From contig CAWVFK010000043.1 of NCBI GenBank assembly GCA_963928595.1, positions 1,995 to 65,994 of the forward strand: a stretch of 64,000 nt of DNA, given 5' to 3'. This document shows positions 44,129 to 59,580 of the stretch, one piece after another. The position numbers and the translations under genes were made by a program. Position 1 is the first letter of the stretch. Each line of letters begins with the position of its first letter. Origin of the DNA: Candidatus Coprosoma sp. (GTDB taxonomy: Bacteria; Bacillota_I; Bacilli_A; RF39; UBA660). The notes under the pieces are model-generated. The model did no database searches. It was not told the DNA's origin and saw only the letters and a list, made by a program, of their open reading frames with translations.

Positions 44129-44138
44129 TAAAAGATTA

Positions 44139-44147
44139 TGCTATAAT
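44139..44147 (+). promoter_or_regulatory. Extended -10 promoter element ahead of the pilus operon
   Basis: TGCTATAAT (TGn + TATAAT), 18 nt upstream of the 44165 ATG. RBS AAGGAGAGG at 44149-44157. Confidence 0.45.
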
Positions 44148-44164
44148 AAAGGAGAGGATACGCT

Positions 44165-44806
44165 ATGAGGTTTAAACGAATTAAATATTTACTTTTTACT
44201 TTAATATGCATGTGCGTTACTCCTTTAATAACACATGCAGAATGTGATTATCAAAGGCAGGCAGAATTGTCTCGATTAGCTAGTAATGTTCAATTCAGTT
44301 ATAATTATCAGGTTGTTGATTATTATCCGCAATTTATGATTACCGCTACAAATTTGACGGACGATATTTATATGGTGGATAATTATGGTACTATGTTTTC
44401 TGGCAAATCAGAATTTACTGCTTCATATAAAGCGGGGAATACAATAACTTATACTTTTTACTCTAATGATGCTAATTGCCGTGGCGAAGAAATAAGTAAG
44501 CGTTATGTAAATCTGCCAGAATTTAATCCTCGTTATAATTCTGATGAATGTAAATTATATCCAAATTTTTCACTTTGTCAAATGTGGACTGATACATCTT
44601 TTTCAGCTGAACAATTTGAAAGTAGGTTGGAAGAATATAAGCAAGAAAGAAGTAAAAAATACGTAGTTAATGAAGAAGGAAATTCTATTTGGAATGTTAT
44701 TTTAACCTTTTTGTCTAATAATATTTTAGGATTTGTGATGGTTGGAATTGTAATTTTAATCCTTATTGGAATGTTTGTTTATAATAAATTGAAATATAGA
44801 AGGTGA
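44165..44806 (+). CDS. Secreted Cys-containing protein with C-terminal membrane anchor, first gene of the pilus operon
   Basis: 213 aa. Signal peptide ends ...PLITHA/ECDYQ. The ectodomain has 4 Cys. C-terminal TM GFVMVGIVILILIGMFVY is followed by KLKYRR. Confidence 0.6.
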   Translation: MRFKRIKYLLFTLICMCVTPLITHAECDYQRQAELSRLASNVQFSYNYQVVDYYPQFMITATNLTDDIYMVDNYGTMFSGKSEFTASYKAGNTITYTFYSNDANCRGEEISKRYVNLPEFNPRYNSDECKLYPNFSLCQMWTDTSFSAEQFESRLEEYKQERSKKYVVNEEGNSIWNVILTFLSNNILGFVMVGIVILILIGMFVYNKLKYRR

Positions 44807-44810
44807 TTGT

Positions 44811-47624
44811 ATGAAAATATTTAAATACTTATTTACAACGGTAATGATATTTTGTATATATTTAACTTCAGTATATGCGGATGTTACTATTGGTGCTGGA
44901 CCGGGAGGTGGATATAATGCGAGTGGCAATTGGACAAGATACCACAATAACCCGTTTGGAACATCAAGGCAATATCGTGGTTATAAAATTCGTTTGATTT
45001 ACTATGATGGTTCTGATCCGAGTGGAGTGCGTGGAGAAAGCGCGTGGCAGGAGATAACGAGTTTTGATGTTGTTATAAGTGATTTGAATGTGGCTGGTAC
45101 TAACTACACTAATTTAGTGCGTTTACATGGACAAAATAATACGAAACTTGGTTTAATCGACAACAATGCAAAACCTAATTTATATTGGCTTGGTCAGCAA
45201 GTGGCAAATGTTGAAAATGGAACGACTAATGAGGAACGTATAAAAAGTGAAATTGAAGCTAATGATTCTGCTCGTTTACGAGCTATTATTAGAGAACTTG
45301 GTGTCGACGAATCTACGATGACCAAAGAGAGCGTCGAAGAGATGGGATGGAATCATAAAGGATATCGTTTTATTGCCGAGAAATTAATAATAATGACTGA
45401 TGTCGGATGGTTTTTTGCGAATTCAAGAAAAGAATTAGCACAAGTAATTCCTAATGACAGATCTAGTAATGTAACGAGTTTTTATGAAGGACTTTGGGAA
45501 CTTAGAACATTAGCAAATGGTTCGGGAGTGTTTCCTGGGGATATTAGAACGACTAAAGATGATATTAATGTAAGATATAATGGAGCTAATTGGAATTATA
45601 ACAATTTTAGAAATTATAATAGTGGTATTGGACTTGGTATTATAAGTATTGGTCATAATCCATATGCAGAAAAAGATTATACTATTGATGCAGCTTGTGT
45701 TAACTGTAATTCTGATGATGATGAAAATAAAGCATATATTATTCAGGATACAAATGACTGGGATGCTATTATGTCTAGTAGGCAATCTAGTAATAAAAAT
45801 GTCACTAGCTATTATAATAAAGGTAATGGAGTATATTGCCGAGAAGAATATTGGGTTTATTTACCTAATGTAAATAATACGATTTATGTAGATCCTGGAA
45901 GATATTTTACACTTAATCCTTCGGCAGCAGATTTAAGTGCAATGGATTCTTCTTCGGCAATTCCTAATTTTAAACCAATAAAGGTTACGAAGAAACGGGA
46001 GTGTCGAGTTAATACGGAAGAAAATGGTTCAAACGCATCTACGGTACTAGATACATTTAGAAGAAATTCTGAATATGATTTTAAAGGTAAAACTGGTACT
46101 GTAAAATTTAAATATAATGAGGTTTATGATGAAAGTCGTTATAACATGAAGGAACCAGAAAAATTAAGTGTTTATGATGAGCCTAATAATTATAATTATT
46201 CAATAAATGGTAATTCACTTACTATGGAAGTAACTCGTTATTATACTTTACCAGATAATTATTATCAGTATATTAGGAAACAAGATGGACTTTCTATGAA
46301 GACAAAACCTTCTTCTAATATAAATCATTATTTAAATGTTGGTATTCCTAATTTGCCGTTATCATTTAATAATAAGGGTGGTTCAACAAATGGAGAAGTT
46401 TCTAAAGCAGCTGATATTCAATTTTCATTTGAACTTCCCGGTAAAAATAATGATACAGATCAATATTCTAAATTGTATCTTGCTTATATACAAAATAATT
46501 CTTATTTAGCAACTGATAATGAAAGTGGTAATATTTATAATAGATATTTAACTGGACAAATGGAAGCTGGAGATCAAGATTTATTAAATAAAAGTGCTTG
46601 TGCAAAAATGTTTGGTGTAAATACTTCTGGTTTTTCTACTTGTGTTAGTCAAAGAAAAAATAATGCAATTGGGGAAGGATCAAATAGTTGTATTACTAAA
46701 AATAATATATCATCTTCTAGTACTACTTCTGGTTATTCTTGCATGGTACTAACTTCAGAACCGGATGATCCTAATGATCCTCCTGGCACGCCAGGGAAAT
46801 GTAAAACAGAAGAAGATGCAAAAAGATTAGGACGTGATTGGAATCCATATAGTCAAAGTTGTTGCCCGGTTGGAACAACTTACAATCCATCACTCGGAAA
46901 ATGTGAGCCGGATGATGACACTAATACTTGTCATATTAAAAATGGCAAATATTATGATTTTGATGGTAAGGAAATAACTAAGGAAGAATACGATAGAATT
47001 TGTCCTGATCCAGGTGATGGTGATACTTGTCGAATCGAGAATGGTAAATATTATGATTTTAATGGTAATGAGATAACCAAAGAGGAATTTGATAAAATTT
47101 GCCCTGGCTATGTTCCACCGGTTTGTCCAGAAGATGAATGTCCGTATGGTTGCTGTCCAAGTGGTGAATGTGCACCAATGCCTGATGGAACTTGTCCAGG
47201 AACTGGTGGTATAGATGTTATTTATAGAACAATTGATTTGGAAAATCCATTTCCTGGTCAAAATGCTGAACAAAGAAATACTGGGGCTAACTGGTGTAGC
47301 TATAATATAAAAACTCAACAAATTGATTGTAAGTATAATAATCAAACTGTTAAAAATTATGTAACTAGAGAAAGAGGCGGTACGACTAATGGTGGTAAAG
47401 TTTATCGCGAGAATCACGTTTTATATGAAGTAACATTAGATACTAAGACAATTAATGCAATTAGAGCTTATAATAATAAGAATAAGTATGATGATTGGGA
47501 TTTAAATTGCTTGGATAATGGAAAAGCATGTATTAGTGATTTCTTGAGAAGTCAAGTCGATACTACTGGTGAATGTGCAAATGCAAGTAAGTCAACTTTT
47601 TATACTTGTGATGAAGATGTTTAG
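44811..47624 (+). CDS. Large secreted Cys-rich protein (candidate adhesin or pilus-associated)
   Basis: 937 aa with signal-peptide-like N-terminus (MKIFKYLFTTVMIFCIYLTSVYA/DV). Contains a 33-aa tandem repeat and a Cys/Pro-rich region (CPEDECPYGCCPSGECAPMPDGTCPG). Lies 4 nt after the previous gene. Confidence 0.65.
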   Translation: MKIFKYLFTTVMIFCIYLTSVYADVTIGAGPGGGYNASGNWTRYHNNPFGTSRQYRGYKIRLIYYDGSDPSGVRGESAWQEITSFDVVISDLNVAGTNYTNLVRLHGQNNTKLGLIDNNAKPNLYWLGQQVANVENGTTNEERIKSEIEANDSARLRAIIRELGVDESTMTKESVEEMGWNHKGYRFIAEKLIIMTDVGWFFANSRKELAQVIPNDRSSNVTSFYEGLWELRTLANGSGVFPGDIRTTKDDINVRYNGANWNYNNFRNYNSGIGLGIISIGHNPYAEKDYTIDAACVNCNSDDDENKAYIIQDTNDWDAIMSSRQSSNKNVTSYYNKGNGVYCREEYWVYLPNVNNTIYVDPGRYFTLNPSAADLSAMDSSSAIPNFKPIKVTKKRECRVNTEENGSNASTVLDTFRRNSEYDFKGKTGTVKFKYNEVYDESRYNMKEPEKLSVYDEPNNYNYSINGNSLTMEVTRYYTLPDNYYQYIRKQDGLSMKTKPSSNINHYLNVGIPNLPLSFNNKGGSTNGEVSKAADIQFSFELPGKNNDTDQYSKLYLAYIQNNSYLATDNESGNIYNRYLTGQMEAGDQDLLNKSACAKMFGVNTSGFSTCVSQRKNNAIGEGSNSCITKNNISSSSTTSGYSCMVLTSEPDDPNDPPGTPGKCKTEEDAKRLGRDWNPYSQSCCPVGTTYNPSLGKCEPDDDTNTCHIKNGKYYDFDGKEITKEEYDRICPDPGDGDTCRIENGKYYDFNGNEITKEEFDKICPGYVPPVCPEDECPYGCCPSGECAPMPDGTCPGTGGIDVIYRTIDLENPFPGQNAEQRNTGANWCSYNIKTQQIDCKYNNQTVKNYVTRERGGTTNGGKVYRENHVLYEVTLDTKTINAIRAYNNKNKYDDWDLNCLDNGKACISDFLRSQVDTTGECANASKSTFYTCDEDV
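46926..47123 (+). repeat. Direct tandem repeat, 2 x 99 nt (33 aa), inside the 937-aa ORF
   Basis: Unit 1 begins ACTTGTCATATTAAAAATGGCAAATATTATGATTTTGATGG at 46926. Unit 2 begins ACTTGTCGAATCGAGAATGGTAAATATTATGATTTTAATGG at 47025. The peptide units are TCHIKNGKYYDFDGKEITKEEYDRICP and TCRIENGKYYDFNGNEITKEEFDKICP. Confidence 0.85.
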
Positions 47625-47637: not shown

Positions 47638-48039
47638 ATGAAAGAGTCTTTTTGGGGTATATTTGTTGTGTTTCTTGGTGTTTTATCAATATTCTTTATT
47701 GTTTTATTTCAAAATTTGACTAATACTGACGAGCACAATTCACAATTATTAAAAGAAGTTACGGAAGCGTCAATGTGGGATGCGTTTGATTACGCATCTT
47801 ACAGAACTACTGGTGAAATTCGAATAGATAGAGAAAAATTTGTTGAAAATTTTATTAGAAGATATGCAGAAAGTGCTAGTAGATCAAGACAATACACAAT
47901 TAAATTTTACGATATTAACGAGAAACCACCAAAAGTAAGCTTGAGTGTACAAAGCGGTGTGGTAGGCGTTGGAGGCAATACCGAGATGACATTTGATTTG
48001 CAAAATAGAATAGATGCAATTTTGGAAGTGCCTTATTAG
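47638..48039 (+). CDS. Pilin-like/pseudopilin candidate (N-terminal MKES..G + hydrophobic helix)
   Basis: 133 aa starting MKESFWG-IFVVFLGVLSIFFIVLF. It shares the M-K/R-E-S/A...G leader pattern with ORFs at 52244, 52527 and 53021. Confidence 0.5.
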   Translation: MKESFWGIFVVFLGVLSIFFIVLFQNLTNTDEHNSQLLKEVTEASMWDAFDYASYRTTGEIRIDREKFVENFIRRYAESASRSRQYTIKFYDINEKPPKVSLSVQSGVVGVGGNTEMTFDLQNRIDAILEVPY

Positions 48040-48068
48040 AAAAATAAAAGAAAAGAGAGGATGAGATT

Positions 48069-49115
48069 ATGAATAATTTGGTGGCGTCAGCCAAAAAGTT
48101 TTTTAAGAACAAAAACGTGGTAACAATTATCGGAGTTGTTGTGATTCTAATCTTGCTATATGTTGGTTATAGTACACAGATCAACAATGCAGTTGAACCA
48201 GTACAAGTCCCTGTTGCTACACAAACAATTCAACCAAGAACTGAGATTACTGATGATATGGTGCAAATGGTAGATATGCCAAATGTTTCAATCAGTGATA
48301 ACGTAATTAGATCAAAATCACAAATAGTGGGTAAATATTCAAATGTTAACTCAGTAATTCCTGAAGGAAGTATGTTTTATACTGATACAGTAATTAATGG
48401 TGATGAACTTCCTGATGCGGCTTTCGCTAAGGTTAAATCTGGAGAAGTTGTTTATAATTTTCCTGTTGATATGGAAAGTACTTATGGTAATTCTATTTTC
48501 CCAGGTAATATGATTGATATCTATATGAAAGTTGGAGATGGAACAGACGAAAGAATTATGTTAGGAAAACTAATTGAAAATGTCGAAGTATTAGCTGTTA
48601 AGGATTCTTCTGGTAGAGCTGTATTTGAAGATACTAGTGAAGAAAGAACTCCTTCTATGTTAATCTTTGGTTTAAACAGTAATTTATATACAATCTTGAA
48701 AAAAGCTTCATATATGGAAAGTTTAGGTGTTGAATTATATCCAGTACCACATGGTGGTGAAGTTGATCAAGAAGGTGCAACTCAAGTATCTACACAACAA
48801 TTAGTTGATTATATTGATGCACACTCTGTAAATATTCCAATTCCTGAAGATACTGCTGATCAAGATGAATTAGTACCAACAGTTAAAGAAACTGGTGGAA
48901 ATCCTAATACAGTTACTATAACATTCCCTAGTGGTTGTGATGGAACTTACACTTGTACATATGTTAAAGATGGTGGTAGATCTCAAGTTGTAAAAGGAAC
49001 TACTCAAGAACTTGTTTATACTGGTAATGGAACACTTACAGCAACTGTTCAAGAGAAAGATGGAACAGCACATACGACGACAGTTGATATTCCATTAACT
49101 AATTCAACCGAATAG
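48069..49115 (+). CDS. cpaB: Flp pilus assembly protein CpaB-like (SAF + RcpC-like domains)
   Basis: N-terminal TM segment, then a SAF-like segment (VPVATQTIQPRTEITDDMVQMVDMP...IVGKY....IPEGSMF). An RcpC-like block follows (FPGNMIDIYM...VEVLAV) and a C-terminal T/G-rich beta domain with 2 Cys. Confidence 0.65.
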   Translation: MNNLVASAKKFFKNKNVVTIIGVVVILILLYVGYSTQINNAVEPVQVPVATQTIQPRTEITDDMVQMVDMPNVSISDNVIRSKSQIVGKYSNVNSVIPEGSMFYTDTVINGDELPDAAFAKVKSGEVVYNFPVDMESTYGNSIFPGNMIDIYMKVGDGTDERIMLGKLIENVEVLAVKDSSGRAVFEDTSEERTPSMLIFGLNSNLYTILKKASYMESLGVELYPVPHGGEVDQEGATQVSTQQLVDYIDAHSVNIPIPEDTADQDELVPTVKETGGNPNTVTITFPSGCDGTYTCTYVKDGGRSQVVKGTTQELVYTGNGTLTATVQEKDGTAHTTTVDIPLTNSTE

Positions 49116-49126
49116 GGGGAATTGAT

Positions 49127-50470
49127 ATGAATAATATGTTTGACCAAATAGATTTCGGTCCGATGAAACCTTATTTGGAAGATGATGATGTAACTGATAT
49201 TTCTTATGATAATGGTGGACAGATACATTTAAAAACATTATCTAAAGGAATATTTAGAATTGAAAATCCAGCTATTAATAATGCATTTATGGAAAAGCTA
49301 GCGTTTCAATGCTCTAATGTTATGGGTAAAACCTTTAACATGGCTCATCCATTTTTGGATGCTGAAAGTGCAGAGTTACGTTTAGCTTTCATCCATGACT
49401 CTGTTGCACAAAACGGCATTGCATGTGTGGTTCGTAAGACACCAGCTAAGATTCGTTTGCAAAAAGAGAAAATAGTTGCTGATAAATATGTTGAACTTGA
49501 TATTATTGATTTTTTAGAACAATGTGTTTTAGGACATTGTAATATGATAGTTAGTGGTGAAACTGGTTCTGGTAAAACAGAGTTAGTTAAATATTTGGCT
49601 TCAAAAATTGCTGAAAATGAGAAAGTTATTACAATTGAAGATACTTTGGAACTTCACTTGGATAAGATCTTTCCACATCGTGATATTGTTTCTTTAAAAA
49701 CAAATAATATTGCATCTTATACTGATATTTTGGAAGCTTGTATGAGACAGAACCCTAAGTGGATATTGCTTTCTGAGGTTCGTAGTGCAGAAGCTGTACT
49801 GGCAGTTCGTAATTCAATTTCATCTGGACACTATATTTTATCTACTATTCATGCTGATAAGGCAGTATCTATTCCAAATCGTATGTATAGTTTGCTTGAA
49901 ACAAATCAAGATTTGGATCAGTTTATGAGCTCAATTTGTAGATATATTCAGATTGGTATATATGTTAGAGGATATCAAGATAAAGCAACAAAACATTTTA
50001 AACGTGAGATTGCTGAGGTTACAGAATTTTATGTAACTAGTGATACCAATGAAGCCCGTCATAACATTATTTATCGAAAAGGTGCTGATGGAAAGGTTAT
50101 TAGAAATAATCCATCTCCTTATTTAATTGATTATTTGGAGGTTCAAGGAGTATTTTTACCAAAAGAACTTCAGAATATGGCTGGGGAGCCTTATACTGAA
50201 AATGATTCTATGAAAAGTAATGCACTGATTAAAGATGATAATAATGATCAATCACAGTCTGCTGCGATAATAGATAATAATTTGATGAATGACTTTACTC
50301 AAGAGAATGCTCAATCACAAACTGCAAATATTGCAGATGTTAGTTTGACTAATAATATTAATGTTAATAATCAAACTCCAACTAATCCTATGACAAATTT
50401 AAGTACTACTACGATAAGTCCTTCATCTGGAGTTACTACAGAAGATAAAACTGAGAATTTATTTGAATAA
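49127..50470 (+). CDS. tadA: Type II/IV secretion ATPase, TadA/CpaF (VirB11-related) family, with N/Q/T-rich C-terminal tail
   Basis: VTDISYDNGGQI, RLAFIH....NGIACVVRK, Walker A SGETGSGKTE, TIEDTLEL, Walker B-like KWILLSEVRSAEA, His box STIHA. The last ~90 aa are low complexity. Confidence 0.8.
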   Translation: MNNMFDQIDFGPMKPYLEDDDVTDISYDNGGQIHLKTLSKGIFRIENPAINNAFMEKLAFQCSNVMGKTFNMAHPFLDAESAELRLAFIHDSVAQNGIACVVRKTPAKIRLQKEKIVADKYVELDIIDFLEQCVLGHCNMIVSGETGSGKTELVKYLASKIAENEKVITIEDTLELHLDKIFPHRDIVSLKTNNIASYTDILEACMRQNPKWILLSEVRSAEAVLAVRNSISSGHYILSTIHADKAVSIPNRMYSLLETNQDLDQFMSSICRYIQIGIYVRGYQDKATKHFKREIAEVTEFYVTSDTNEARHNIIYRKGADGKVIRNNPSPYLIDYLEVQGVFLPKELQNMAGEPYTENDSMKSNALIKDDNNDQSQSAAIIDNNLMNDFTQENAQSQTANIADVSLTNNINVNNQTPTNPMTNLSTTTISPSSGVTTEDKTENLFE

Positions 50471-50484
50471 AGGAGGGGGATGCA

Positions 50485-51390
50485 ATGACATTTTTGGTAT
50501 TTATAATAGTACTGGCTATTGCGATATTCATTGTTTTATATCGTAATAACAGTAATAGTAATAATGTTTATAAATTTATAAACAAAAAAATTGGTGTAAT
50601 TTATGATAAGTATGCTCCTTATTCATTTAAAGTGGTTAGGGAAAAGGTTAAGGAGTTAGGACAGGAATATACTCCAAGACAATATGCAATTCAAATTGTC
50701 GTGTTTGCTGTTAGTTCAGCGGTTATTACTTATTTGTATTTTTACAATATTGTCGTTTCTTTGATATATTCAGCATTATCTGTTTTAGTTATTCCTTATT
50801 TAACTTATTTAAGATGTAAAAGGTTATATAGTGAATTTATTTTTGAACAAGTTCAGGTATATACGACAAATACGATTATGGAGTTTGCAACAACTCAATC
50901 ATTTGTTAAAGCTTTAGAAGGTGTATATGCTTCTAATGTACTTGAAGATCCAGTTAAATCAGATGTTAAGATGATGATTGATATGGCATATGAGAATGGT
51001 ACTATTGATCAATCTCTTAATTATATGAATTCTAAATATGATTTTTACATTGTTAGAAATATGCATCAACTATTTTTACAAATTACTAATGAAGGTTCAA
51101 GGGATTCTGGTGAATCACTTGAAAACATGAGCCAAGATATAGATATGCTAGTTGAATCGGTTTATCGTGATAGAATTGATAGAGCTTCATTCCATAAAAA
51201 GTTTTTACAATTTGGTATTATCCTTTATTTGATGGTCATGCTTATACAATTTATGCTTGGTATGGAAACTTATAATCAGATGTTAGCAGACTGGTGGGTA
51301 CAACTTTTATTACACGGTATTATTTGGTTAAATACGTACTTTATCTTGTCTGGTGAAAAATATTATAATGAAGATGTGGGGGCGGAATAA
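50485..51390 (+). CDS. TadB-like inner-membrane platform protein (T2SF-like)
   Basis: 301 aa with the topology TM, cytoplasmic segment, 2 TM, ~130-aa helical domain, TM. Position immediately after the ATPase is typical of tadB. Confidence 0.55.
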   Translation: MTFLVFIIVLAIAIFIVLYRNNSNSNNVYKFINKKIGVIYDKYAPYSFKVVREKVKELGQEYTPRQYAIQIVVFAVSSAVITYLYFYNIVVSLIYSALSVLVIPYLTYLRCKRLYSEFIFEQVQVYTTNTIMEFATTQSFVKALEGVYASNVLEDPVKSDVKMMIDMAYENGTIDQSLNYMNSKYDFYIVRNMHQLFLQITNEGSRDSGESLENMSQDIDMLVESVYRDRIDRASFHKKFLQFGIILYLMVMLIQFMLGMETYNQMLADWWVQLLLHGIIWLNTYFILSGEKYYNEDVGAE

Positions 51391-52184
51391 TGAGTATAGG
51401 TATAACTTTTATAATTATTGCGGTTATTGTAATATTCTTACTTGAATACAATAATCATTTTAGCTCTAACAAATTCATTAAAGAAACAGAACCATATTTT
51501 AGAGTTTTAATGGAATCTGATTACGAGTTTTTATTAACGGTTAGGTATGGTGGCGATATCGATGTCAATAAAATGTACGGTTTAAGAGTTCGTAATGGTA
51601 TTATTGGTATTATATTCTGTTTGTTTATATTTTTAAATCAATTATCATTTGCATATATTTTACTTTCTTTGTTAATTGGTTTTGCGCTTTTTAAGCTGCC
51701 ATATATGCAGCTTAGTAGTTATTATAAGCAAAATTTGCATAAAATTAATTTAATGCTTCCATACTATTTAAAGGGACTAGAAATTTTAATTCAGCATTAC
51801 ACGGTTCCAGTTGCTCTTGCTAGATCTATTGATACTGCTCCTGAAATATTTAAACCAGGATTAAGAAAATTAGTGGCTAAAATAGATGCAGGTGATTCAT
51901 CTGTACAACCTTATATGGATTTTGCGAATGAATATCCTGTTCGTGATTCAATGAGAATGATGCGACTTTTGTATCGTTTGGGTCTTGGTAGCCAGGAAAA
52001 CAAGCAAGAACAGTTGATGATGTTTTCAAGAACTATATCTACTTTACAGAATAAAGCACGTGAGCAAAAGTATAAAGAGCGTTTAGAAAAGATGGAAAAT
52101 AAGACAATGGTAATGTTATTTGGTACTGGTGGAGGTATTTTAGGTTTCTTACTTTTGTCAATGATGATGATGATGAACTATTAA
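51390..52184 (+). CDS. TadC-like inner-membrane platform protein (T2SF-like)
   Basis: 264 aa with the same topology as the preceding ORF. The helical domain is LPYYLKGLEILIQHYTVPVALARSID...F..GLRKLV..ID.G. Its start overlaps the previous stop by 1 nt. Confidence 0.6.
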   Translation: MSIGITFIIIAVIVIFLLEYNNHFSSNKFIKETEPYFRVLMESDYEFLLTVRYGGDIDVNKMYGLRVRNGIIGIIFCLFIFLNQLSFAYILLSLLIGFALFKLPYMQLSSYYKQNLHKINLMLPYYLKGLEILIQHYTVPVALARSIDTAPEIFKPGLRKLVAKIDAGDSSVQPYMDFANEYPVRDSMRMMRLLYRLGLGSQENKQEQLMMFSRTISTLQNKAREQKYKERLEKMENKTMVMLFGTGGGILGFLLLSMMMMMNY

Positions 52185-52207
52185 TGATAGTCAAATTTAA
52201 TAAAATG

Positions 52208-52216
52208 TGTTATAAT
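52208..52216 (+). promoter_or_regulatory. Extended -10 element dedicated to the pilin gene
   Basis: TGTTATAAT (TGn + TATAAT at 52211-52216) lies in the only sizeable gap (59 nt) within the operon. A weak -35 TAGTCA lies 17 nt upstream. Confidence 0.5.
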
Positions 52217-52243
52217 TTAAAATAGGAGGGTAGGTGATAAGAA

Positions 52244-52480
52244 ATGAAGGAAGCAGCAGGTGAAGCAAACTTAACAGTTGTTGCAATTATTTTGATTGGT
52301 GTTATCGTTGCTGTTGTTACACCACTTATTACTAGTTTGATGAGTAATACAGCCAGTAGGGCTTGTTGTACAGATGCTGGTGGTGTATGGAAAGGTGGTC
52401 AATGTACACCAGGTGATAGTAATTCTTATGATGCGTCAAGCTATCGAACATGTGTTGAAAATTCTAATTCAGACAATTAA
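52244..52480 (+). CDS. Candidate major pilin (Flp-like size, atypical leader, Cys-rich C-terminus)
   Basis: 78 aa: MKEAAG-EANLTVVAIILIGVIVAVVTPLITSLM, then a hydrophilic tail with 4 Cys (RACC...GQC...RTC). Strong RBS (AGGAGGG). It has its own promoter and terminator. Confidence 0.6.
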   Translation: MKEAAGEANLTVVAIILIGVIVAVVTPLITSLMSNTASRACCTDAGGVWKGGQCTPGDSNSYDASSYRTCVENSNSDN

Positions 52481-52493
52481 TTGCTTGCTTTAA

Positions 52494-52515
52494 AGCAAGT
52501 TTTTCTTGATAAGGC
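52494..52515 (+). terminator. Hairpin terminator/attenuator directly after the pilin gene
   Basis: CTTGCT (52494-52499) pairs with AGCAAG (52504-52509), 4-nt loop, then TTTTTCTTG. Confidence 0.55.
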
Positions 52516-52526
52516 GGTGATTTAAA

Positions 52527-53024
52527 GTGCGTGAGAGTATTGGTAGTGTGTTTCTATATAATATAATAATTATATTTGTTATTATAGTATTTGGTTTGCT
52601 TTCAGCAACTATTAGTTATTATAAAGCTTTTAAAGTTAATGAACGCCTTTTGTTTTCCTTGGATAAATTTGAAGGTTATAATAGATTTTCTAAAGAAGAG
52701 ATGGAGAATTTTTTGGCGAGTATTGGATATACATATAATCCAGATGGTCAAAGTGATTGTCCTAAGGAAAAAGATGGTGGGGTTTTAATTAGTACTAATA
52801 ATACTCATTATTTGTATTGTGTATATTATCATGAAGATGATAGGGGAAGCCAAGAACAAAATAGACTTAATGATGATGATGAACCCATTTACTATAATTA
52901 TGCATTAACTAGTTATATCTATGTTGATTTACCAATTGTCGGTGCCTTTAAATTGCCGGTTTATACAAAGGGTGAAAGAATATATAATTTTAGTGATAGC
53001 CAAGAACAGGGGGCGAGAGTATGA
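52527..53024 (+). CDS. Pilin-like/pseudopilin candidate, paralog A
   Basis: 165 aa with GTG start. MRESIG-SVFLYNIIIIFVIIVFGLLSATISYYKAFKVN. Shares IGY, CP, YLYCVY and YIYVDLPIVG...LPV blocks with the next ORF. Confidence 0.55.
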   Translation: MRESIGSVFLYNIIIIFVIIVFGLLSATISYYKAFKVNERLLFSLDKFEGYNRFSKEEMENFLASIGYTYNPDGQSDCPKEKDGGVLISTNNTHYLYCVYYHEDDRGSQEQNRLNDDDEPIYYNYALTSYIYVDLPIVGAFKLPVYTKGERIYNFSDSQEQGARV

Positions 53025-53506
53025 AAGAAGCTATAGCAAATGCAGGTATATTTAATCTAGTCATTATATTTGTTATAATTCTAATTGCTTTCTTTATTGG
53101 CTCACTTTCTTATTCTAAAGCTTTTAAAGTAAAAAATAAGATAATTGAAGAGATTGAAAAAGATCAAGCTTATACTACTGGTGTAAATAATTCTACTGAA
53201 GATAGAGTAGAAGAATGGATTGGGAATATTGGTTATAGAGTAAATACTGGTAATGATAGAAATAGTGTGAATTGTCCTACAGTTACTGGCAATGGCGGAG
53301 AGCAAGGTAAACTTGTAAATTCTGATGGTGATTATCAGTATTGCGTGTATGAGTTTGACACTTGTACAGCTAGGTCTGATAAGGCAAAATGTGGTAAGTA
53401 TTACCGTGTAACAGCTTATATGTATTTTGATATTCCAATTTTAAGTGGTTTACTTAGAATACCAGTAAGTGGTGAGACTATGATATTTAATGAGGTAGAT
53501 AGTTAA
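53021..53506 (+). CDS. Pilin-like/pseudopilin candidate, paralog B
   Basis: 161 aa: MKEAIANAG-IFNLVIIFVIILIAFFIGSLSYSKAFKVKN with IGY, NCP, YQYCVY and YMYFDIPILSG..RIPV. It has 4 Cys and overlaps the previous ORF by 4 nt. Confidence 0.55.
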   Translation: MKEAIANAGIFNLVIIFVIILIAFFIGSLSYSKAFKVKNKIIEEIEKDQAYTTGVNNSTEDRVEEWIGNIGYRVNTGNDRNSVNCPTVTGNGGEQGKLVNSDGDYQYCVYEFDTCTARSDKAKCGKYYRVTAYMYFDIPILSGLLRIPVSGETMIFNEVDS

Positions 53507-54624: not shown

Positions 54625-54975
54625 ATGAATTTAGTAAATACTTTAGAATATTGTGCCGGAACTTTAGGTAATGGTATTCCAGAGGGAATTGGAAATGTTG
54701 TTCATTTGATTGTTGTAGCTATTCAAGTTGTAGTTCCAATATTATTAATTATTTGGGGTATGATTGATTTTGCTAAAGCTATTATTGGTCAAGATGAAGA
54801 TAAAATTAAAGCTGGTCAAAGAACATTTTTAAAGAGATTAATTGCGGCAGTAGTTGTATTCTTAGTTGTTACAATTGTTAATTTGGCAATTAATTTAGCA
54901 GCTAGTGTTGGCGGTGAAGGAAATGATGCTAATACTGCTTGGACTTGTGCAAAAGAATTAATTAATGGACATTAG
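54625..54975 (+). CDS. VirB2/TrbC-like T4SS pilin-like hairpin membrane protein, paralog 1
   Basis: 116 aa with two TM helices flanking a charged loop (VVPILLIIWGMIDFAKAIIGQDEDKIKAGQRTFLKRLIAAVVVFLVV). One Cys lies in each extracytoplasmic tail (EYCAG, WTCAKELING). Confidence 0.65.
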   Translation: MNLVNTLEYCAGTLGNGIPEGIGNVVHLIVVAIQVVVPILLIIWGMIDFAKAIIGQDEDKIKAGQRTFLKRLIAAVVVFLVVTIVNLAINLAASVGGEGNDANTAWTCAKELINGH

Positions 54976-55010
54976 TCTTTAGATTTTGATTTAGAAAGTA
55001 GGAATTTGAT

Positions 55011-55403
55011 ATGGATTTATTTTATCTATTAGATGCTGCTGATTCAACATTATGTGAGGGTATTTTAGTTCCAAATGTTTTGTTTAATGTTGTGTCAACC
55101 ATTATTACAGGTATTAAAATAGTAGTTCCAATATTATTAATTATATGGGGAATGCTTGATTTTGCAAAATCTGTTATTGCAAAAAAGGAAGAAGATATTA
55201 AAAAATATCAAAAAGCCTTTGTATCACGTCTTATTTCTGCTTTAATTGTATTTTTAATAATATTTGTAGTTCAACTTGCTGTTAATTTAGTTTCTGGAGT
55301 AGAGGATAGTGCTAATCCAGATGGTACAACTGTCAGTGACATATGGAGCTGTAGTAAGAAATTTATTAATGGTGTTGATACTAATGAAAATGCTGAAGAA
55401 TAG
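55011..55403 (+). CDS. VirB2/TrbC-like T4SS pilin-like hairpin membrane protein, paralog 2
   Basis: 130 aa with the same architecture as paralog 1. VVPILLIIWGM.DFAK matches paralog 1, and 23 nt are identical at DNA level (54730-54752 = 55122-55144). The Cys residues lie in STLCEG and WSCSKKFING. Confidence 0.65.
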   Translation: MDLFYLLDAADSTLCEGILVPNVLFNVVSTIITGIKIVVPILLIIWGMLDFAKSVIAKKEEDIKKYQKAFVSRLISALIVFLIIFVVQLAVNLVSGVEDSANPDGTTVSDIWSCSKKFINGVDTNENAEE

Positions 55404-55431
55404 AGTTATCGAATTGATAATTCTATTTTTA
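55402..55431 (+). terminator. Terminator after the two pilin-like genes
   Basis: AGAGTTATC (55402-55410) pairs with GATAATTCT (55416-55424, one G-U), 5-nt loop, then ATTTTTA. Confidence 0.6.
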
Positions 55432-55461
55432 TGTTTTGTCAATTTTTTGTATATTAATTGT

Positions 55462-55489
55462 TTGTTACTTTACTAAATTATGTTATAAT
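55462..55489 (+). promoter_or_regulatory. Promoter with extended -10 for the downstream T4SS genes
   Basis: TTGTTA (55462-55467), 16-nt spacer ending in TGT, TATAAT (55484-55489). Confidence 0.5.
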
Positions 55490-55521
55490 GATTATGTATT
55501 ATATTCTAAGTGGGTGACTTT

Positions 55522-56517
55522 ATGAAAAAAATTTTTGCTTCAATTGTTATAATTATTAGCATATTTTTTATAAAAATTAATGATGTTAGTGCTGCGTGTA
55601 GTTGTTATTTTACTGGTCAATTAATGACTGATAATGATGGATATAGAACAGACTATTTGTTGGAAGTGAGTTTAACAGCAGGTCAAGATCCTAAAATTAT
55701 ATATTTTGGTGAAAGTGGTTTTGATGTTGAATCTGGTGAAAGTGGGGCTTATAATAATTTAACCAACGAAATGGTTTCAAACAATAAATTTTTGAAAAAT
55801 TTTGGTGATGATCAACGTGCTCTTGCTGACAATGTTGCTAAAGCAGGTTGCCCAGTTACTGGAGCTTCTGCTGGCTGTAATCGTTTTACCATTTATTATG
55901 AAAGCTGGGATGGACCATCGGGTAGAGATAGGAGAATTTTTTGGAAAGCTCCAACTATAAGTGAAAATGTGCCTATTATTGGTAGTATACCTGGAGTTGG
56001 TGATCAGGTTGCTTGGGATCCAACAGCTGTTCATTCTGATAAATTTAGAGCAATTTCTAAAGAAAATTACTCAAAATTAAAAAAGGCTGATAGTGCTGCT
56101 AGCACTATTGAAGATTTAGGCCTCGAAGATTCTGATTTTTCTGCAGAAATTCTTGCAATTCGAAAATGGGCACAACAGACAGGTCAAACTAATATTGAAG
56201 ATATTGGTGATCCCTGCTTAATTATTGATGGCTCACTACAAGAATTATTAAGTCATGTTTTTTGGATTATTAGTATTTTAGGAATTATATTGGTTGTTGT
56301 GATGACAGCATTAAGTTTTATAAAAGCGATTGTTGGATCTGATGACGAAAAATTTAGGGATGCTTTTAGACATTTATTTACAAGAATTATTGTTGTAATC
56401 ATTCTTTTATTACTTCCAATGCTTTTAAGATTTATAATATCTATAATTAATGATAATGTGTCTGGCGTTGTTAAAATTGGTTCAGATGGTAAAACACCAT
56501 TTTGTGATATTGCCTAG
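55522..56517 (+). CDS. Secreted Cys-containing ectodomain fused to a C-terminal VirB2-like TM hairpin
   Basis: Start MKKIFASIV (ATG 55522) with signal peptide ...NDVSA/A. A ~220-aa ectodomain follows. The C-terminal WIISILGIILVVVMTALSFIKAIVGSDDEKFRDAFRHLFTRIIVVIILLLL aligns with the hairpin of the two small pilin-like proteins. Cys residues flank the hairpin (DPCLII, PFCDIA). Confidence 0.6.
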   Translation: MKKIFASIVIIISIFFIKINDVSAACSCYFTGQLMTDNDGYRTDYLLEVSLTAGQDPKIIYFGESGFDVESGESGAYNNLTNEMVSNNKFLKNFGDDQRALADNVAKAGCPVTGASAGCNRFTIYYESWDGPSGRDRRIFWKAPTISENVPIIGSIPGVGDQVAWDPTAVHSDKFRAISKENYSKLKKADSAASTIEDLGLEDSDFSAEILAIRKWAQQTGQTNIEDIGDPCLIIDGSLQELLSHVFWIISILGIILVVVMTALSFIKAIVGSDDEKFRDAFRHLFTRIIVVIILLLLPMLLRFIISIINDNVSGVVKIGSDGKTPFCDIA

Positions 56518-56531
56518 TAAAGGAGGATTTT

Positions 56532-58724
56532 ATGTGGGATGTATTAACTGATTTGGTAAGATCTTTAATGTTTTTCTTTGATAATATCATATATGGATTA
56601 ATTCCAACTATTTATAAATTGTTTGTTTATCTATCTGAGGTCGATCTTTTTACTGGTAATACTCAAATTAATAATTTAGTAAATCATATATACGCATTGT
56701 TAGGCATATTTATGCTTTTTAAAGTTAGTTTTTCACTTTTACAATATATTGTTGACCCAAATTCATTTAGAGATAGTTCAAAAGGTATGGGAAAATTAAT
56801 TACTAATGTTTTAATATCATTAGTTTTACTTGTTAGTGTTCCTTCAATATTTAGTCTACTTATGGAGTTTCAGACTACTATTGTTCAAAGTAATGCAATT
56901 GGGAGATTGATTTTAGGAACTAATACCACTGGAAACGGCAGTGAGGCTGTAGATGGTGATTATATATCGGTAGAAGGGGTCAATACTATGGCTAAAGATT
57001 TACAATTTATGATTTATGGTGCTTTTTATTCTATTGATTCCAAGTTTATTGATCCAAATTCATTTGAATATGCTAATGAAAATATGAAAATATTAAGTAA
57101 TTGTGAAGGAACAACGGGTATTTTAGGCTCAACAGATATGGCTATAGCTAATAATGGACAATGTTTAGATCAATTGGCTAAAGAAATGGAAAAACAGGAT
57201 GATGTATCTGCAAATGGCGTTAATTTATATAGTTTTTATAAATATGTAAATGAACAAGGGGAAGTAGTGGATGAACGCGATTTTAATGATTTTGGTAGAT
57301 TGTTGACATGGAAACAAGATGGTGTGTATGTTATTAATTATTTACCATTAATTTCGGCTGCTGCTGGTATTTATATTGTGTTCTTATTAATTAGTTTCTC
57401 TGTTGATGTTGCTGTACGTGCTATAAAATTATGCTTTTTACAAATGGTTGCACCTATTGCAATTGTTTCATATGTTGATCCTAAAGAATCTGTAAGCAAT
57501 GGTAAATTACATAATTGGGTTGTAGAATGTTCAAAAACGTATTTTTCTTTATTTTTAAGACTGGCGACTATTTTTTTAGTGATGTTTGTAATTTCTGCAG
57601 TTGCATCTACTGTAATTTCGAGTGGTAGTAATATTGAAGGATTGTTACAAGAAGATCCTGGATATAATATTTGGATATATTTATTCTTAGTATTAGGTGC
57701 ATTTATGTTTGCAAAGCAAGTACCAAATATAATAGAGTCTATTTTTGGAATTAAGGGGTCTGGAGATCTTAATTTAAATCCATTTAAAAATGCTGGTCTT
57801 GCAACTTTAACTGGTGGTGTTGTTGGCGCTGGTATTGGTGGAGTGGCAAGTTCTATTGCTTCTGCAAAAACAGCTTCAATTATGGGTGATAATGCATTTA
57901 AAGCTGGTCTAGGTGGTTTTGCAAAAGGAACGGTAAGTGGTGCATTTAAAGGTAGAAACTGGGATGGTAAAAATGTATCTTCATTAATTTCTACACCGCT
58001 CAGTGTTTCTGGTGATATAGCTAGATATCAAGCTGCTAAGCATGGTACGAGATTAGTTGATCGTGCTGGAGCAATGATAAATGAAGCAATAGGAGCACCG
58101 CAAAAAGCTGATATAATGAAAAAACGAATAGAAAATGCTGGTAGATTTACTAAATTTTATGATGCTGTTGATGGTGGTATGGCTGCTAAAATGGTTAAAC
58201 TAAAGGATATTAGTCAGTTTACTAGTAGTGATCAGGCTAAGAATAAAGCTAATTTTGATAAAATTAATAATTATAATTATCTGAAAGCACAATTAGATGC
58301 GGCAATACAACGTGGTGATGCTGCGACTGCTGCTAGTATTCAAAATGGTTCATATTCAGATTCTGTGATTACTTCAAAAGCCAAATTTAGTGATTATGAA
58401 GATGATGCAAAACAAACTATGTATGATATGATCATTAATAATGAAGTTGCTGATGATGCTGAAATTCAGTCTATTAGGTCTAATATTGATGCTATGAAGA
58501 GAGTGGGTAAAGAAAATGCATCTACTCCTGAGTTTGCATCTGTTGATGATAGTATTTATGTTAATGATGCATCAGGCAATGCTATGTCCAAGATGAAGAA
58601 GGCGTCTAAAGCTGTTAATACTGCTAAGACTATAACTGAAAACAGTGATGAATATGAAAATGCTCAAGCTGCTGCTGACGCAATTAAATCTAATCGTATG
58701 TTTGAACATTTTACAAAAAAATAA
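56532..58724 (+). CDS. VirB6/TrbL-like polytopic T4SS channel protein with long C-terminal hydrophilic domain
   Basis: 730 aa with at least 7 TM segments, one large extracytoplasmic loop, a Gly-rich TM (GLATLTGGVVGAGIGGVASSIASA) and a ~260-aa soluble tail. The position between pilin-like and VirB3/VirB4-like genes fits this call. Confidence 0.6.
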   Translation: MWDVLTDLVRSLMFFFDNIIYGLIPTIYKLFVYLSEVDLFTGNTQINNLVNHIYALLGIFMLFKVSFSLLQYIVDPNSFRDSSKGMGKLITNVLISLVLLVSVPSIFSLLMEFQTTIVQSNAIGRLILGTNTTGNGSEAVDGDYISVEGVNTMAKDLQFMIYGAFYSIDSKFIDPNSFEYANENMKILSNCEGTTGILGSTDMAIANNGQCLDQLAKEMEKQDDVSANGVNLYSFYKYVNEQGEVVDERDFNDFGRLLTWKQDGVYVINYLPLISAAAGIYIVFLLISFSVDVAVRAIKLCFLQMVAPIAIVSYVDPKESVSNGKLHNWVVECSKTYFSLFLRLATIFLVMFVISAVASTVISSGSNIEGLLQEDPGYNIWIYLFLVLGAFMFAKQVPNIIESIFGIKGSGDLNLNPFKNAGLATLTGGVVGAGIGGVASSIASAKTASIMGDNAFKAGLGGFAKGTVSGAFKGRNWDGKNVSSLISTPLSVSGDIARYQAAKHGTRLVDRAGAMINEAIGAPQKADIMKKRIENAGRFTKFYDAVDGGMAAKMVKLKDISQFTSSDQAKNKANFDKINNYNYLKAQLDAAIQRGDAATAASIQNGSYSDSVITSKAKFSDYEDDAKQTMYDMIINNEVADDAEIQSIRSNIDAMKRVGKENASTPEFASVDDSIYVNDASGNAMSKMKKASKAVNTAKTITENSDEYENAQAAADAIKSNRMFEHFTKK

Positions 58725-58738
58725 AAAGGGGTGATTAA

Positions 58739-59065
58739 ATGCAATTCTTAATTCCGGCGAATACTAAAAAATCAATGTTAATATTTGGAGCATTTACAAC
58801 ATTTGATTTAATTTTGTTTGGTGTAGGTATTGGGGCTACAATAATAATGTTATTGATAATAGCTCCTAATTCCTTGTTGACAGCAGTTATTGATTTATTG
58901 CCGGCTTTAATATGTGGTTTCTTGGTGCTTCCAATACCAAATTACCATAACATTAGAGTTGTAATTCAGGAGTTATACAGATTTTATACTACCAGACAAA
59001 GGTTTATATGGAAAGGATGGTGTGTGAAGGATGAATACGGAGACTCGCGGCAAATACACAAATGA
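58739..59065 (+). CDS. VirB3/PrgI-like small T4SS membrane protein
   Basis: 108 aa with two TM helices after a short basic N-terminus (NTKKSMLIFGAFTTFDLILFGVGIG...). It lies immediately upstream of VirB4, as expected for VirB3 analogues. Confidence 0.55.
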   Translation: MQFLIPANTKKSMLIFGAFTTFDLILFGVGIGATIIMLLIIAPNSLLTAVIDLLPALICGFLVLPIPNYHNIRVVIQELYRFYTTRQRFIWKGWCVKDEYGDSRQIHK

Positions 59066-59579: not shown

Positions 59580-59580
59580 T

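Follow-up and report, generated by a model that had tools for sequence, protein, structure and literature searches.

Four small membrane-anchored proteins (A, B, C and D) encoded in a 64,000-nucleotide stretch of Candidatus Coprosoma sp. (the window) share the start M-[KR]-E-[SA], after which comes a hydrophobic helix of ~20-21 residues. This raises the question of whether so short an N-terminus is a prepilin-type signal and, if so, which machine it serves and which enzyme removes it. We favor, by a modest measure of belief, the reading that this N-terminus, M-[KR]-E-[SA]-x-G, serves as a minimal class III signal and is removed by a peptidase whose gene lies elsewhere. The genes themselves, judged by sequence, appear to form a divergent Tad-like type IV filament module, in which a CpaB-like protein and a CpaF-like ATPase are accompanied by two polytopic proteins, one major-pilin candidate of 78 aa and three candidates for minor pilins. 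The features of the locus are as follows:

42521..47624, forward strand: three conserved upstream genes, whose products are a polytopic protein of 535 aa that has an ectodomain, a 213-aa protein with a Sec signal and a 937-aa Cys-rich protein with a Sec signal
47638..48039, forward strand: protein A, minor-pilin candidate, 133 aa, Pfam DUF5411 (PF17424, E=1.3e-56), N-terminus MKESFWG and then a hydrophobic helix
48069..49115, forward strand: CpaB/RcpC-like protein, anchored in the membrane by its N-terminus, with a SAF and an RcpC domain (PF16976, E=1.2e-6, a score equal to the gathering threshold; TIGR03177, E=3.3e-11, under its cut-off)
49127..50470, forward strand: assembly ATPase of the CpaF/TadA/archaeal GspE-FlaI clade (PF00437, E=1.3e-27)
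50485..51390, forward strand: polytopic membrane protein with 4 predicted TM segments, by position and topology a candidate TadB-type platform
51390..52184, forward strand: second polytopic membrane protein with 4 predicted TM segments laid out as in the first, candidate TadC-type platform
52188..52216, forward strand: promoter-like site TAGTCA-17-TATAAT with a TG, just 5' of the B gene, suggestive in a consensus scan
52244..52480, forward strand: protein B, major-pilin candidate, 78 aa, MKEAAG followed by EANLTVVAIILIGVIVAVVTPL and a variable Cys-rich tail
52483..52500, forward strand: terminator-like hairpin and T-run, picked up by scan directly 3' of the B stop codon
52527..53024, forward strand: protein C, minor-pilin candidate and paralogue of D, 165 aa, MRESIG, hydrophobic helix, SYYKAFKV
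53021..53506, forward strand: protein D, minor-pilin candidate, 161 aa, MKEAIANAG, hydrophobic helix, SYSKAFKV, C-terminal domain with conserved Cys residues
53521..54531, forward strand: 336-aa protein in the TadZ/CpaE position, kept in 66 of 80 loci
54625..62096, forward strand: VirB4-type T4SS unit, from Pfam matches

The N-termini quoted in the first-pass annotation match the ORF translations exactly: MKESFWGIFVVFLGVL (47638), MKEAAGEANLTVVAIIL (52244), MRESIGSVFLYNIIII (52527, with a GTG start) and MKEAIANAGIFNLVIIF (53021). The M[KR]E[SA] start that it had singled out is present in 4/4 pilin-like ORFs and 0/63 of the remaining ORFs of the window, with the shorter M[KR]E in 2/63 of the latter (hypergeometric probabilities ~1e-6 and 2e-5, respectively). 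The shared residues are specified by unlike codons at positions 2-4 of the four genes (AAA GAG TCT, AAG GAA GCA, CGT GAG AGT and AAA GAA GCT), which points to selection at the protein level. The starts are fixed by a purine-rich Shine-Dalgarno site 5' of each and by an in-frame stop 0-10 codons upstream in most of the orthologous loci, ruling out a longer leader in those loci. Conservation in orthologous loci, the lack of which would have refuted the earlier claim, was found: the motif recurs in ~90 related loci, being kept in 65-78 orthologues per family and in the distant loci L085, L086, L095 and L096.

The position of a possible cut follows from the register of these N-termini. B, C and D are alignable from Met1 without gaps, C and D pairwise likewise, and hhalign matches residues 1-26 of D and B in register (E=7e-5). 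Hence, the common small residue falls at position 6, corresponding to position 7 in the DUF5411 protein A. Gly occupies it in 96-100% of B and in 97% of C (59/61 unique orthologues, with N12 in 55/61); in D it is G, A or S in 62/65 locus sequences and N in the remaining 3. The cut sites first proposed, after G7, G6, G6 and G9, are mutually out of register, and Gly9 of the 53021 protein is unconserved, being G in 15/65 loci and F, M, A, Y or L elsewhere. Of 145 distinct N-termini taken from DUF5411 representatives of 50%-identity clusters, 90% have K/R at position 2, 72% E at position 3, 97% S/A/T at position 4, 86% W at position 6 and 77% G at position 7; the bulky or β-branched residues (T, I, L, M, W) found at position 7 in ~12% argue against a cut there. 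Similarity between the B, C/D and A families is confined to the N-termini, in register from Met1. Unrelated pilins are likewise alike in their N-termini only.

Protein B has further pilin-like traits. Its conservation declines from 0.95 at the N-terminus to 0.14 at the C-terminus, and 24 diverse members all have M1, K2, E3, E7, N9, T11 and V12. Pilins typically have the N-terminus as their most conserved part and the C-terminus as their least. The B profile retrieved three PDB sequences at E<=10, all weak, of which the best two are type IV pilins; G19 and P27 of B align with pilin G14 and P22, such that a cut after G6 would bring these two helix breakers to +13 and +21, the type IVa pilin positions being +14 and +22. 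The archaeal Pilin_N model gave a weak match to one B homologue (E=0.01). As the first-pass annotation had observed, neither the Flp nor the type IV consensus fits: a Glu at +5 or an EY motif is absent from all four proteins. The Flp_Fap, TadE and N_methyl models, run on 24 members of the B family and 30 of C/D, match none of them. These absences count against the favored reading and make the earlier phrase "divergent pilin class" a fair one. B has 923 unnamed homologues and D 275, with no Pfam domain among the 120 matches listed for each.

The machine that these proteins would serve includes an ATPase for which the closest PDB entry is CpaF (3.3e-18), followed by archaeal GspE and FlaI and then VirB11; its identity to Alkaliphilus CpaF is 31%. 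The CpaB-like gene ahead of it also counts for a Tad-like affinity, and the prepilin-type architecture claimed earlier for this locus is supported by both, along with the B gradient, the pilin matches and the modeled helices described below. The first polytopic protein has a mean column identity of 81% among orthologues, no match in Pfam and PDB searches, and a weak tblastn match to a real T2SSF protein (E=0.003), with hhalign not significant; a search for a T2SSF signal in the second found none. The T2SSF identity of both is thus not demonstrable by sequence, and their platform role remains a candidate one. The 336-aa protein has a possible degenerate P-loop, GAGATT, and found no match in Pfam and PDB searches; its position would suit a TadZ/CpaE-like role.

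The more difficult question is the peptidase. The earlier statement that no A24 peptidase is encoded between 42.5 and 64 kb holds and extends to the rest of the 64-kb window; none was found within +/-10 kb of the module in ~90 related loci (80 close, 6 distant) either, a result that covers only the locus and its flanks. No conserved polytopic protein of the cluster has an invariant membrane-embedded Asp pair, a lack that makes the 51390..52184 protein unlike an aspartic peptidase, and the 535-aa polytopic protein shows no protease motif. These absences lend themselves to the alternative that A-D are true filament subunits left uncut, with Met1-Lys2-Glu3 as the mature N-terminus and the invariant K2/E3 (plus E7 in B) providing a buried charge pairing. 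In classical pilins, such pairing comes from the N-terminal amine and Glu5. If so, the machine would have no need of a prepilin peptidase. Several observations speak for it: the leader length is constant across hundreds of diverse sequences, with DUF5411 beginning <=4 residues from the protein's own N-terminus in 149/150 cluster representatives; positions 1-4 are conserved at least as well as the putative cut site, and the first 10 residues of B have 0.95 column identity; the putative Gly-1 is replaceable by T, I, L or M in DUF5411 and by N in D; and the host genomes are reduced (~1.3-1.5 Mb). An invariant length is atypical of removable leaders. Against it, the G6 of B and C is nearly invariant, the leader is similar to Flp leaders at their peptidase-proximal end, and a Lys with one or two Glu at the helix tip would need burial in the filament core. 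Moreover, all characterised type IV filament systems use a prepilin peptidase (PMC4471445, PMC6668835), and here it may be encoded away from the locus, as for MSH loci, which lack their own and borrow one from elsewhere (PMC6668835). The other option named in the first-pass annotation, pseudopilins that stay anchored in the membrane unprocessed, may hold as well. We therefore regard uncut subunits as unlikely, if still deserving serious attention, and the step from absence at the locus to a "distant or novel peptidase" as a weak one.

Could these proteins instead not be filament subunits at all? A, C and D might be bitopic, N-terminally anchored accessory proteins of secretion or conjugation, for instance VirB8/NTF2-like or alignment-complex parts, with MKE as a short tail on the cytoplasmic side, setting the topology or touching the ATPase or platform. 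In the AF2 models of A (pLDDT 79; helix 2-48, two short helices, 3 strands) and D (pLDDT 79, pTM 0.71; helix 3-48, 3 strands), an N-terminal helix of 46-47 residues precedes a small β-sheet, and the predicted TM helix continues straight into the globular domain in pilin-like fashion. Neither model had a significant pilin match in Foldseek; the weak matches of A are mainly NTF2-like folds, including the conjugation protein TcpC (3ub1), and among those listed for D is a VirB8-like protein, but all of these have E>=0.09 and TM-scores of ~0.3 or below. The positively charged SYSKAFKVKNK stretch past the TM of C and D, contrary to a simple positive-inside rule, also favors accessory proteins, as does the adjoining VirB4-type T4SS unit, in which a Pfam search found no VirB8 homologue. 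That unit comprises three T4SS_pilin-like genes and TrbL/VirB6-like, PrgI/VirB3-like, TraC-like, VirB4-like and NlpC/P60 hydrolase genes. A terminator-like site (54516-54535) and a promoter-like site (54566-54594) lie between it and the Tad-like module, suggesting separate transcription, and in L095 and L096 the module occurs without a T4SS unit downstream. B, with its major-pilin-like behavior, has the same N-terminus in register, and DUF5411 proteins extend C-terminally to a total length of up to 1664 aa and bear adhesin-type modules there, such as Big_2 and Flg_new. On these grounds, an accessory role seems improbable to us.

The promoter-like site and the hairpin flanking B, the latter kept with compensatory stem changes in L001-L017 and missing from more distant loci, count for a filament subunit, with the hairpin as a possible attenuator raising B over the minor pilins. 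That B is instead a Sec-dependent secreted Cys-rich peptide (pheromone or bacteriocin), cut by signal peptidase I past the hydrophobic stretch, is suggested by these signals, by its small size and by its variable C-terminal part with 4 Cys, but is very hard to credit, because its N-terminal 30 residues are far better conserved than the supposed mature peptide, the hydrophobic stretch of ~24 residues has no AxA site, the Cys residues are wholly missing in the orthologues of L022, L023 and L085, and C and D have the same N-terminus.

The minimal class III signal can also be compared with known systems. The quoted length of class III leaders is 6-26 residues, and that of PilA is 6 aa, as here (PMC4471445). 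Annotated Flp prepilins have leaders ending in [KR]-[DNE]-E-x-G in 6/8 cases, with KEEKG as a Firmicute example; the ends in the window are KEAAG, RESIG and KEAI[AG], or [KR]-E-x-x-G. The leader is hence not as unusual as first described, as it lies at the lower bound of the range and its end resembles those of Flp. The locus further shares with Flp/Tad (type IVc) systems a small major subunit, an ATPase nearest CpaF and the order of CpaB-like gene, CpaF-like ATPase, two polytopic proteins, small pilin, larger pilin-like proteins and TadZ-position protein. It differs in the lack of G/XXXXEY, Glu5 and Tyr6, in a leader cut down to Met and 5 residues, in platform candidates not recognizable as T2SSF, in the presence of a DUF5411 subunit and in the lack of a TadV gene at the locus, where 4/7 of the canonical loci compared have it adjoining flp. 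With type IVa pilins and Com pseudopilins (PilA, PilE1, ComGC) the window proteins share a 6-residue leader ending in Gly, an α1N hydrophobic helix of ~21 residues with Gly/Pro breakers at near-equal spacing, and a conserved N-terminus with a variable C-terminus, but their +1 residue is Glu, Ser or Asn in place of Phe or Met, their +5 residue is Thr, Tyr or Phe in place of Glu, they lack an N_methyl motif, and the ATPase encoded with them falls in the CpaF/archaeal clade, not in that of PilB/ComGA. Archaeal type IV pilins, whose class III signals are cut by PibD, FlaK or EppA, likewise often lack Glu5 and accept G, A or S at -1, and the Pilin_N match and the archaeal origin of the Tad ATPase lineage (PMC6668835) point in the same direction; the window proteins differ in having no K or R at -2 and a bacterial host, and the module has neither an archaeal-type peptidase nor another such accessory gene close by.

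Further close counterparts are the DUF5411 "secretion-related" operons of Roseburia, Ruminococcus and Eubacterium, in which DUF5411 was previously tied to CpaF and PilC/GspF in Clostridia (PMC9523054), and a divergent Tad-like cluster from TANB77, an uncultured clade (PMC11680825). In both, CpaF and DUF5411 occur together with a large surface protein and a membrane protein resembling PilC/GspF, and there are pilin-like proteins that have a very short cytoplasmic tail and then one TM. Neither reports a prepilin peptidase in the operon, "peptidase" being missing from the main text of PMC9523054 and "prepilin" from PMC11680825, and the shared M-[KR]-E-[SA]-x-G start is described in neither, nor is a major subunit named. 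The lineage of the window differs in having a VirB4-type T4SS unit attached to the module and a duplicated C/D gene.

Taken as filament subunits, A-D would belong to a divergent monoderm Tad-like (type IVc-related) machine, widespread in low-GC gut Firmicutes and uncultured Bacilli/Mycoplasmatota. B would be the major subunit, and C, D and A minor ones, probably of the tip or in priming, with A in other lineages bearing large adhesin-like C-terminal modules. The leader may represent the final five residues of a Flp-type leader placed straight after the initiator Met, holding a short tail in the cytoplasm while the ~21-residue helix enters the membrane. An A24-type (TadV-like) peptidase from elsewhere in the genome would most likely cut after residue 6 (residue 7 in A), and E+1, N+3 and T+5 in B, or [YF]+5 and N+6 in C and D, could substitute for the missing Glu5. 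The CpaF-like ATPase, the two polytopic proteins and the CpaB-like protein would then pull the mature subunits from the membrane and polymerise them via their N-terminal helices. The products of the three upstream genes are likely surface or adhesin cargo of the module: these genes are found in 64-72 of 80 loci at ~33% identity, and their order is unchanged in L084-L086 and L095-L097.

The four pilin-like proteins of the Tad-like unit share an N-terminal signature that is real and strongly conserved, and that distinguishes the subunits of a divergent Tad-like filament system. This system has been noticed earlier, yet its pilins and their signal have not previously been described: DUF5411 has been linked, in Roseburia, Ruminococcus and Eubacterium, to operons with CpaF plus PilC/GspF (PMC9523054), and the uncultured TANB77 clade has a comparable divergent Tad cluster whose pilin-like proteins are short-tailed (PMC11680825). 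The genes and sites concerned are as follows.

Upstream of the cluster: housekeeping genes, ending with ScpA/ScpB, tRNA-Leu, flavodoxin and a UDG-family gene
42521 to at least 62776: co-oriented gene cluster
47638-48039 (+): protein A, 133 aa, DUF5411
52244-52480 (+): protein B, 78 aa, candidate major pilin
52527-53024 (+): protein C, 165 aa, candidate minor pilin
53021-53506 (+): protein D, 161 aa, candidate minor pilin
After B, C and D, to 54531: 336-aa protein at the TadZ position
54516-54535: terminator-like hairpin, end of the Tad-like unit
54566-54594: promoter-like site, opening the VirB4-type T4SS unit
54625-62096: chromosomal VirB4-type T4SS unit, with three T4SS_pilin (PF18895)-like, TrbL/VirB6-like, PrgI/VirB3-like, TraC-like and VirB4-like proteins and an NlpC/P60 hydrolase
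62792-64000: incomplete last ORF running off the window end, with a Glucosaminidase domain

The N-termini of A to D read in the window sequence exactly as the first-pass annotation had quoted them, and a Shine-Dalgarno-like site lies before each start. In the orthologues, an in-frame stop codon mostly lies 0-10 codons upstream of the start, indicating that the short N-terminal tails are real; together, these stops and the Shine-Dalgarno sites rule out longer leaders hidden by mis-called starts. Among 67 non-overlapping ORFs of the window, only these four begin with M[KR]E[SA], with M[KR]E found in two others. The codons for the motif differ among the four genes, which points to selection on the protein, and these synonymous variants along with the ORF-start counts rule out chance or codon bias as the origin of MKE. 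The motif is kept in 65-78 orthologues per family and in the distant cluster versions L085, L086, L095 and L096. The N-terminus is nearly invariant in B (MKEA[AST]GEAN[LM]TV), and takes the form M[RK][EQ][SG][IV]G in C, M[KR]E[AS]I[GASN]NA in D and M[KR]E[SAT]xWG in A, the last drawn from 145 distinct N-termini of representatives of 50%-identity clusters. The alignment of the paralogues C and D is free of gaps from Met1; profile comparison places B in register with C/D over residues 1-26 (E=7e-5) and limits the alignment of A with C/D to residues 1-9. Thus, the N-terminus, in a fixed register, is the sole thing common to the four families. B, C and D have the shared small residue at position 6, and A has it one position later, at 7; the cut after Gly9 first proposed for D has to be given up, as Gly9 is not conserved. 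The signature, M-[KR]-E-[SA]-x-G followed by a helix, offers a simple means of annotating these subunits and also singles out the 78-aa protein B as the likely fibre.

Class III leaders have 6-26 residues with a terminal Gly, followed by 21 hydrophobic residues (PMC4471445). The 6-aa leaders of B and C match this definition exactly, with G6 present in 96-100% of B and 97% of C sequences, and those of D (G, A, S or N at position 6) and A (G7 in 77%) do so only partly. Both the sequences and the AF2 models show about 21 mainly hydrophobic residues after the putative cut, as a class III signal requires; the modeled N-terminal helix spans residues 3-48 in D and 2-48 in A and is followed by three strands. 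A leader end of the form [KR]-[DNE]-E-x-G is seen in six of eight annotated Flp prepilins taken from plasmid records (KDESG, KEEKG from a Firmicute, RDEQG, RDEDG, and RNESG twice), and KEAAG, RESIG and KEAI[AG] of the window resemble this peptidase-proximal end put straight after the initiator Met. Hence, of the initial view that the leader is unusual, only a part survives: a short Gly-ended leader fits both the class III range and the Flp leader ends, and it is the mature part that is truly divergent. The absence of the Glu at +5 typical of bacterial systems and of an EY motif, both pointed out at first pass, holds across the families, and the wider G/XXXXE[YF] motif is missing as well. With a cut after residue 6, position +5 is an invariant T in B, Y/F in C and D and hydrophobic in A; Tyr6 is missing from the mature part too, and the conserved polar residues there are E+1, N+3 and T+5 in B and [YF]+5 and N+6 in C and D. 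Searches with Flp_Fap (PF04964) and TadE (PF07811) gave no match at E<=1 in the four window proteins, 24 B members and 30 C/D members, N_methyl gave none in the same 24 and 30 family members, and no similarity to a real Alkaliphilus TadE was found. With these model searches empty, we set aside a sequence link of B, C/D or A to Flp, TadE or N_methyl; the subunits are invisible to all of these current pilin models.

Column identity in B is 0.95 for residues 1-10 and has dropped to 0.14 by the C-terminus. Three PDB sequences were recovered at E<=10 with the B profile, and the two best are pilins, namely Streptococcus sanguinis PilE1 (E=0.026) and a PilA (E=0.76). Residues 12-38 of B align with residues 7-33 of mature PilE1, and this alignment pairs G19 and P27 of B with the pilin helix breakers G14 and P22. 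A promoter-like site lies 5' of the B gene and a hairpin with a T-run (52483-52500) directly follows its stop codon, an arrangement that would fit a highly expressed major subunit. The hairpin is kept, with compensatory stem changes, only in the 17 closest loci (L001-L017); in more distant loci, the B-C gap is only ~20-30 nt and lacks it. Protein A matches DUF5411 (PF17424) over residues 1-132 of its 133 with 190.6 bits against a cut-off of 30 (E=1e-56). Of 150 cluster representatives, 149 have this domain at their very N-terminus, and many bear long C-terminal extensions (total protein length up to 1664 aa) with Big_2, Flg_new or similar modules, an architecture that would be expected of a modular tip pilin. 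Foldseek recovered no significant match in the PDB, to a solved pilin or to anything else, for the AF2 model of either A or D. A VirB8/NTF2-like T4SS component was also weighed for A, C and D; the weak Foldseek matches of A are mostly NTF2-like folds, with TcpC among them, and those of D take in a VirB8-like protein, all at E>=0.09. PDB profile searches started with A, C/D, both polytopic proteins and the 336-aa protein returned nothing meaningful. In the window's lineage, the C/D genes are two paralogues with a 4-nt overlap (53021-53024), and a single copy is present in L085, L086, L095 and L096; the C-type gene of L032, L043 and L054 codes for 239-262 aa.

The absence of an A24 gene from the locus, as originally claimed, is real for the window and for the ±10 kb around the module in related loci, and it departs from the Tad norm: a peptidase gene adjoins flp in four of seven canonical flp loci. 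A full account of the window's polytopic ORFs includes no A24 peptidase. None was found within ±10 kb in about 90 related loci or among the non-conserved polytopic ORFs in such flanks of 80 of them; these scattered ORFs are transporters, FtsX, an Rce1-like protease or unassigned. A real Alkaliphilus TadV-type A24 protein found nothing in the window and 86 loci (best E=4.1), and PF01478 is absent from the precomputed Pfam annotation of the five distant DUF5411 loci L085, L086 and L095-L097, and likewise from the short L084 contig. A peptidase hidden among the 535-aa, 301-aa or 264-aa families was rejected because these have neither an invariant membrane Asp pair nor a GxGD motif in a TM. There is a parallel in MSH loci, which have no peptidase of their own and use a borrowed one (PMC6668835). 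Just one type of membrane protease was seen close to a copy of the module, an Rce1-like/CPBP intramembrane protease (PF02517) encoded less than 10 kb away in two unrelated loci (L072, 1803-2519; L097, 5267-5839); its absence from the other ~85 loci makes this probably a coincidence.

We somewhat favor the explanation that the N-terminus is cleaved by a peptidase encoded elsewhere. The near-invariance of G6 in B and C and the Flp-like leader end argue for cleavage, and so does the G/P spacing, which a cut after G6 would bring near that of classical pilins. The same three features speak against the proteins being leaderless, uncleaved type IV pilins that keep the conserved Met1-[KR]2-Glu3 as their mature N-terminus, with the whole DUF5411-type Tad-like family assembling filaments without any prepilin peptidase. 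We consider this second reading rather unlikely, even with several observations in its favor: positions 1-4 are conserved as much as the cut site or more, the length of the leader never varies, the supposed -1 residue is bulky in ~12% of DUF5411 proteins, with N tolerated there in D, and no lineage has a peptidase gene nearby. To our knowledge, the prepilin peptidase is an otherwise universal component of type IV filament machines. If the proteins are uncleaved, the rule that every type IV filament needs one would be broken, and a leaderless system would be the first known type IV filament machine to lack it; if they are cleaved, the N-terminus sets a lower bound on the recognition needs of a TadV-type peptidase. 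That the four are membrane-anchored proteins with a role outside any filament is improbable, and the remaining readings are each less probable still.

The ATPase of the Tad-like unit is of the CpaF/TadA clade: its best PDB match is CpaF (3.3e-18, both domains), followed by archaeal GspE and FlaI and then VirB11, and it is 31% identical to Alkaliphilus CpaF (E=6e-26), with the NCBIfam TadA and VirB11 models matching only below their cut-offs. The gene directly before it codes for an RcpC/CpaB-like protein, for which PF16976 scores 28.8 bits, equal to the gathering score, and TIGR03177 gives E=3.3e-11, below its cut-off; the match is borderline yet consistent across loci. After the ATPase, at the tadB/tadC position, come two adjacent polytopic proteins that share a 4-TM layout. 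Neither has a match in Pfam or the PDB, and comparison with genuine Firmicute T2SSF (PF00482) yielded a weak tblastn hit (E=0.003) and an hhalign probability below 4%, which is not significant; T2SSF similarity thus appears not to be demonstrable for them. No family was detectable in Pfam or the PDB for the 336-aa protein.

The Tad-like and T4SS units occur together in the window's lineage and in L085. In L086, the module is followed by a T4SS_pilin-like gene with no other T4SS match in the flank, and in L095 and L096 a single T4SS_pilin-like gene and then LtaS follow it, which argues that the Tad-like unit is self-contained. The coupling of the module to a VirB4-type T4SS with VirB2-like pilin genes in the window's lineage parallels the recent description of relaxase-less T4SS with VirB2-like arrays in Patescibacteria (PMC12102498). 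Upstream of A lies a 937-aa protein with a Sec signal (44811-47624), which is very Cys-rich and has the tandem repeat C..(I/R)(K/E)NGKYYDF(D/N)G.EITKEE(Y/F)D.ICP and a conserved YR(T/I)IDL.NPFPG motif common to the upstream proteins of L084. With ~34% identity between loci it is fast-evolving, and it probably serves the module as an adhesin or cargo. A Sortase (PF04203) match was seen on a 535-552-aa protein in L095 (2854-4461) and L096 (3126-4784), encoded three genes upstream of a large secreted protein; there is none on the 535-aa product of the window's first cluster gene. A 261-aa gene of L085 (6458-7243) has an N-terminus that is sortase-like by eye and no Pfam match.

The window has a G+C content of ~30% and nearly all its genes on the + strand. 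Its closest relatives are MAGs labeled uncultured Bacilli, Tenericutes, Mycoplasmatota and Candidatus Pelethosoma; most derive from the gut of animals and humans, and their genomes measure ~1.3-1.5 Mb. The lineage may be of the RF39 type. Database searches returned 2400 homologs for DUF5411 and 923 for B; the module is common in genome-reduced uncultured gut Bacilli/Mycoplasmatota and gut Clostridia, and is probably a main surface-contact organelle there. DUF5411 was not found on plasmids in PLSDB, and no relaxase, coupling protein or integrase was seen within the 64-kb window. The distance from a tRNA-Leu(CAA) (41230-41315) to the first cluster gene downstream is 1.2 kb and takes in the flavodoxin and UDG-family genes; the neighbors upstream of the cluster vary by lineage. 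In two complete MAG chromosomes, the cluster lies at 95-117 kb of 1.54 Mb (L007, OZ007038.1) and at 67-88 kb of 1.52 Mb (L008, OZ007022.1), in both within ~100 kb of coordinate 1, which would be origin-proximal provided that the records begin at dnaA; such a location has reportedly been seen for some Patescibacteria T4SS. In chicken-gut metatranscriptome assemblies (runs X5-X8; window 44000-58000), short contigs match parts of the CpaB-like, ATPase, polytopic and 336-aa genes at 90-95% identity, with low and patchy coverage by relatives that is uninformative on the relative level of B. These contigs indicate that relatives of the module are transcribed in vivo, at a low apparent depth, and the organism of the window is itself probably a chicken-gut bacterium.
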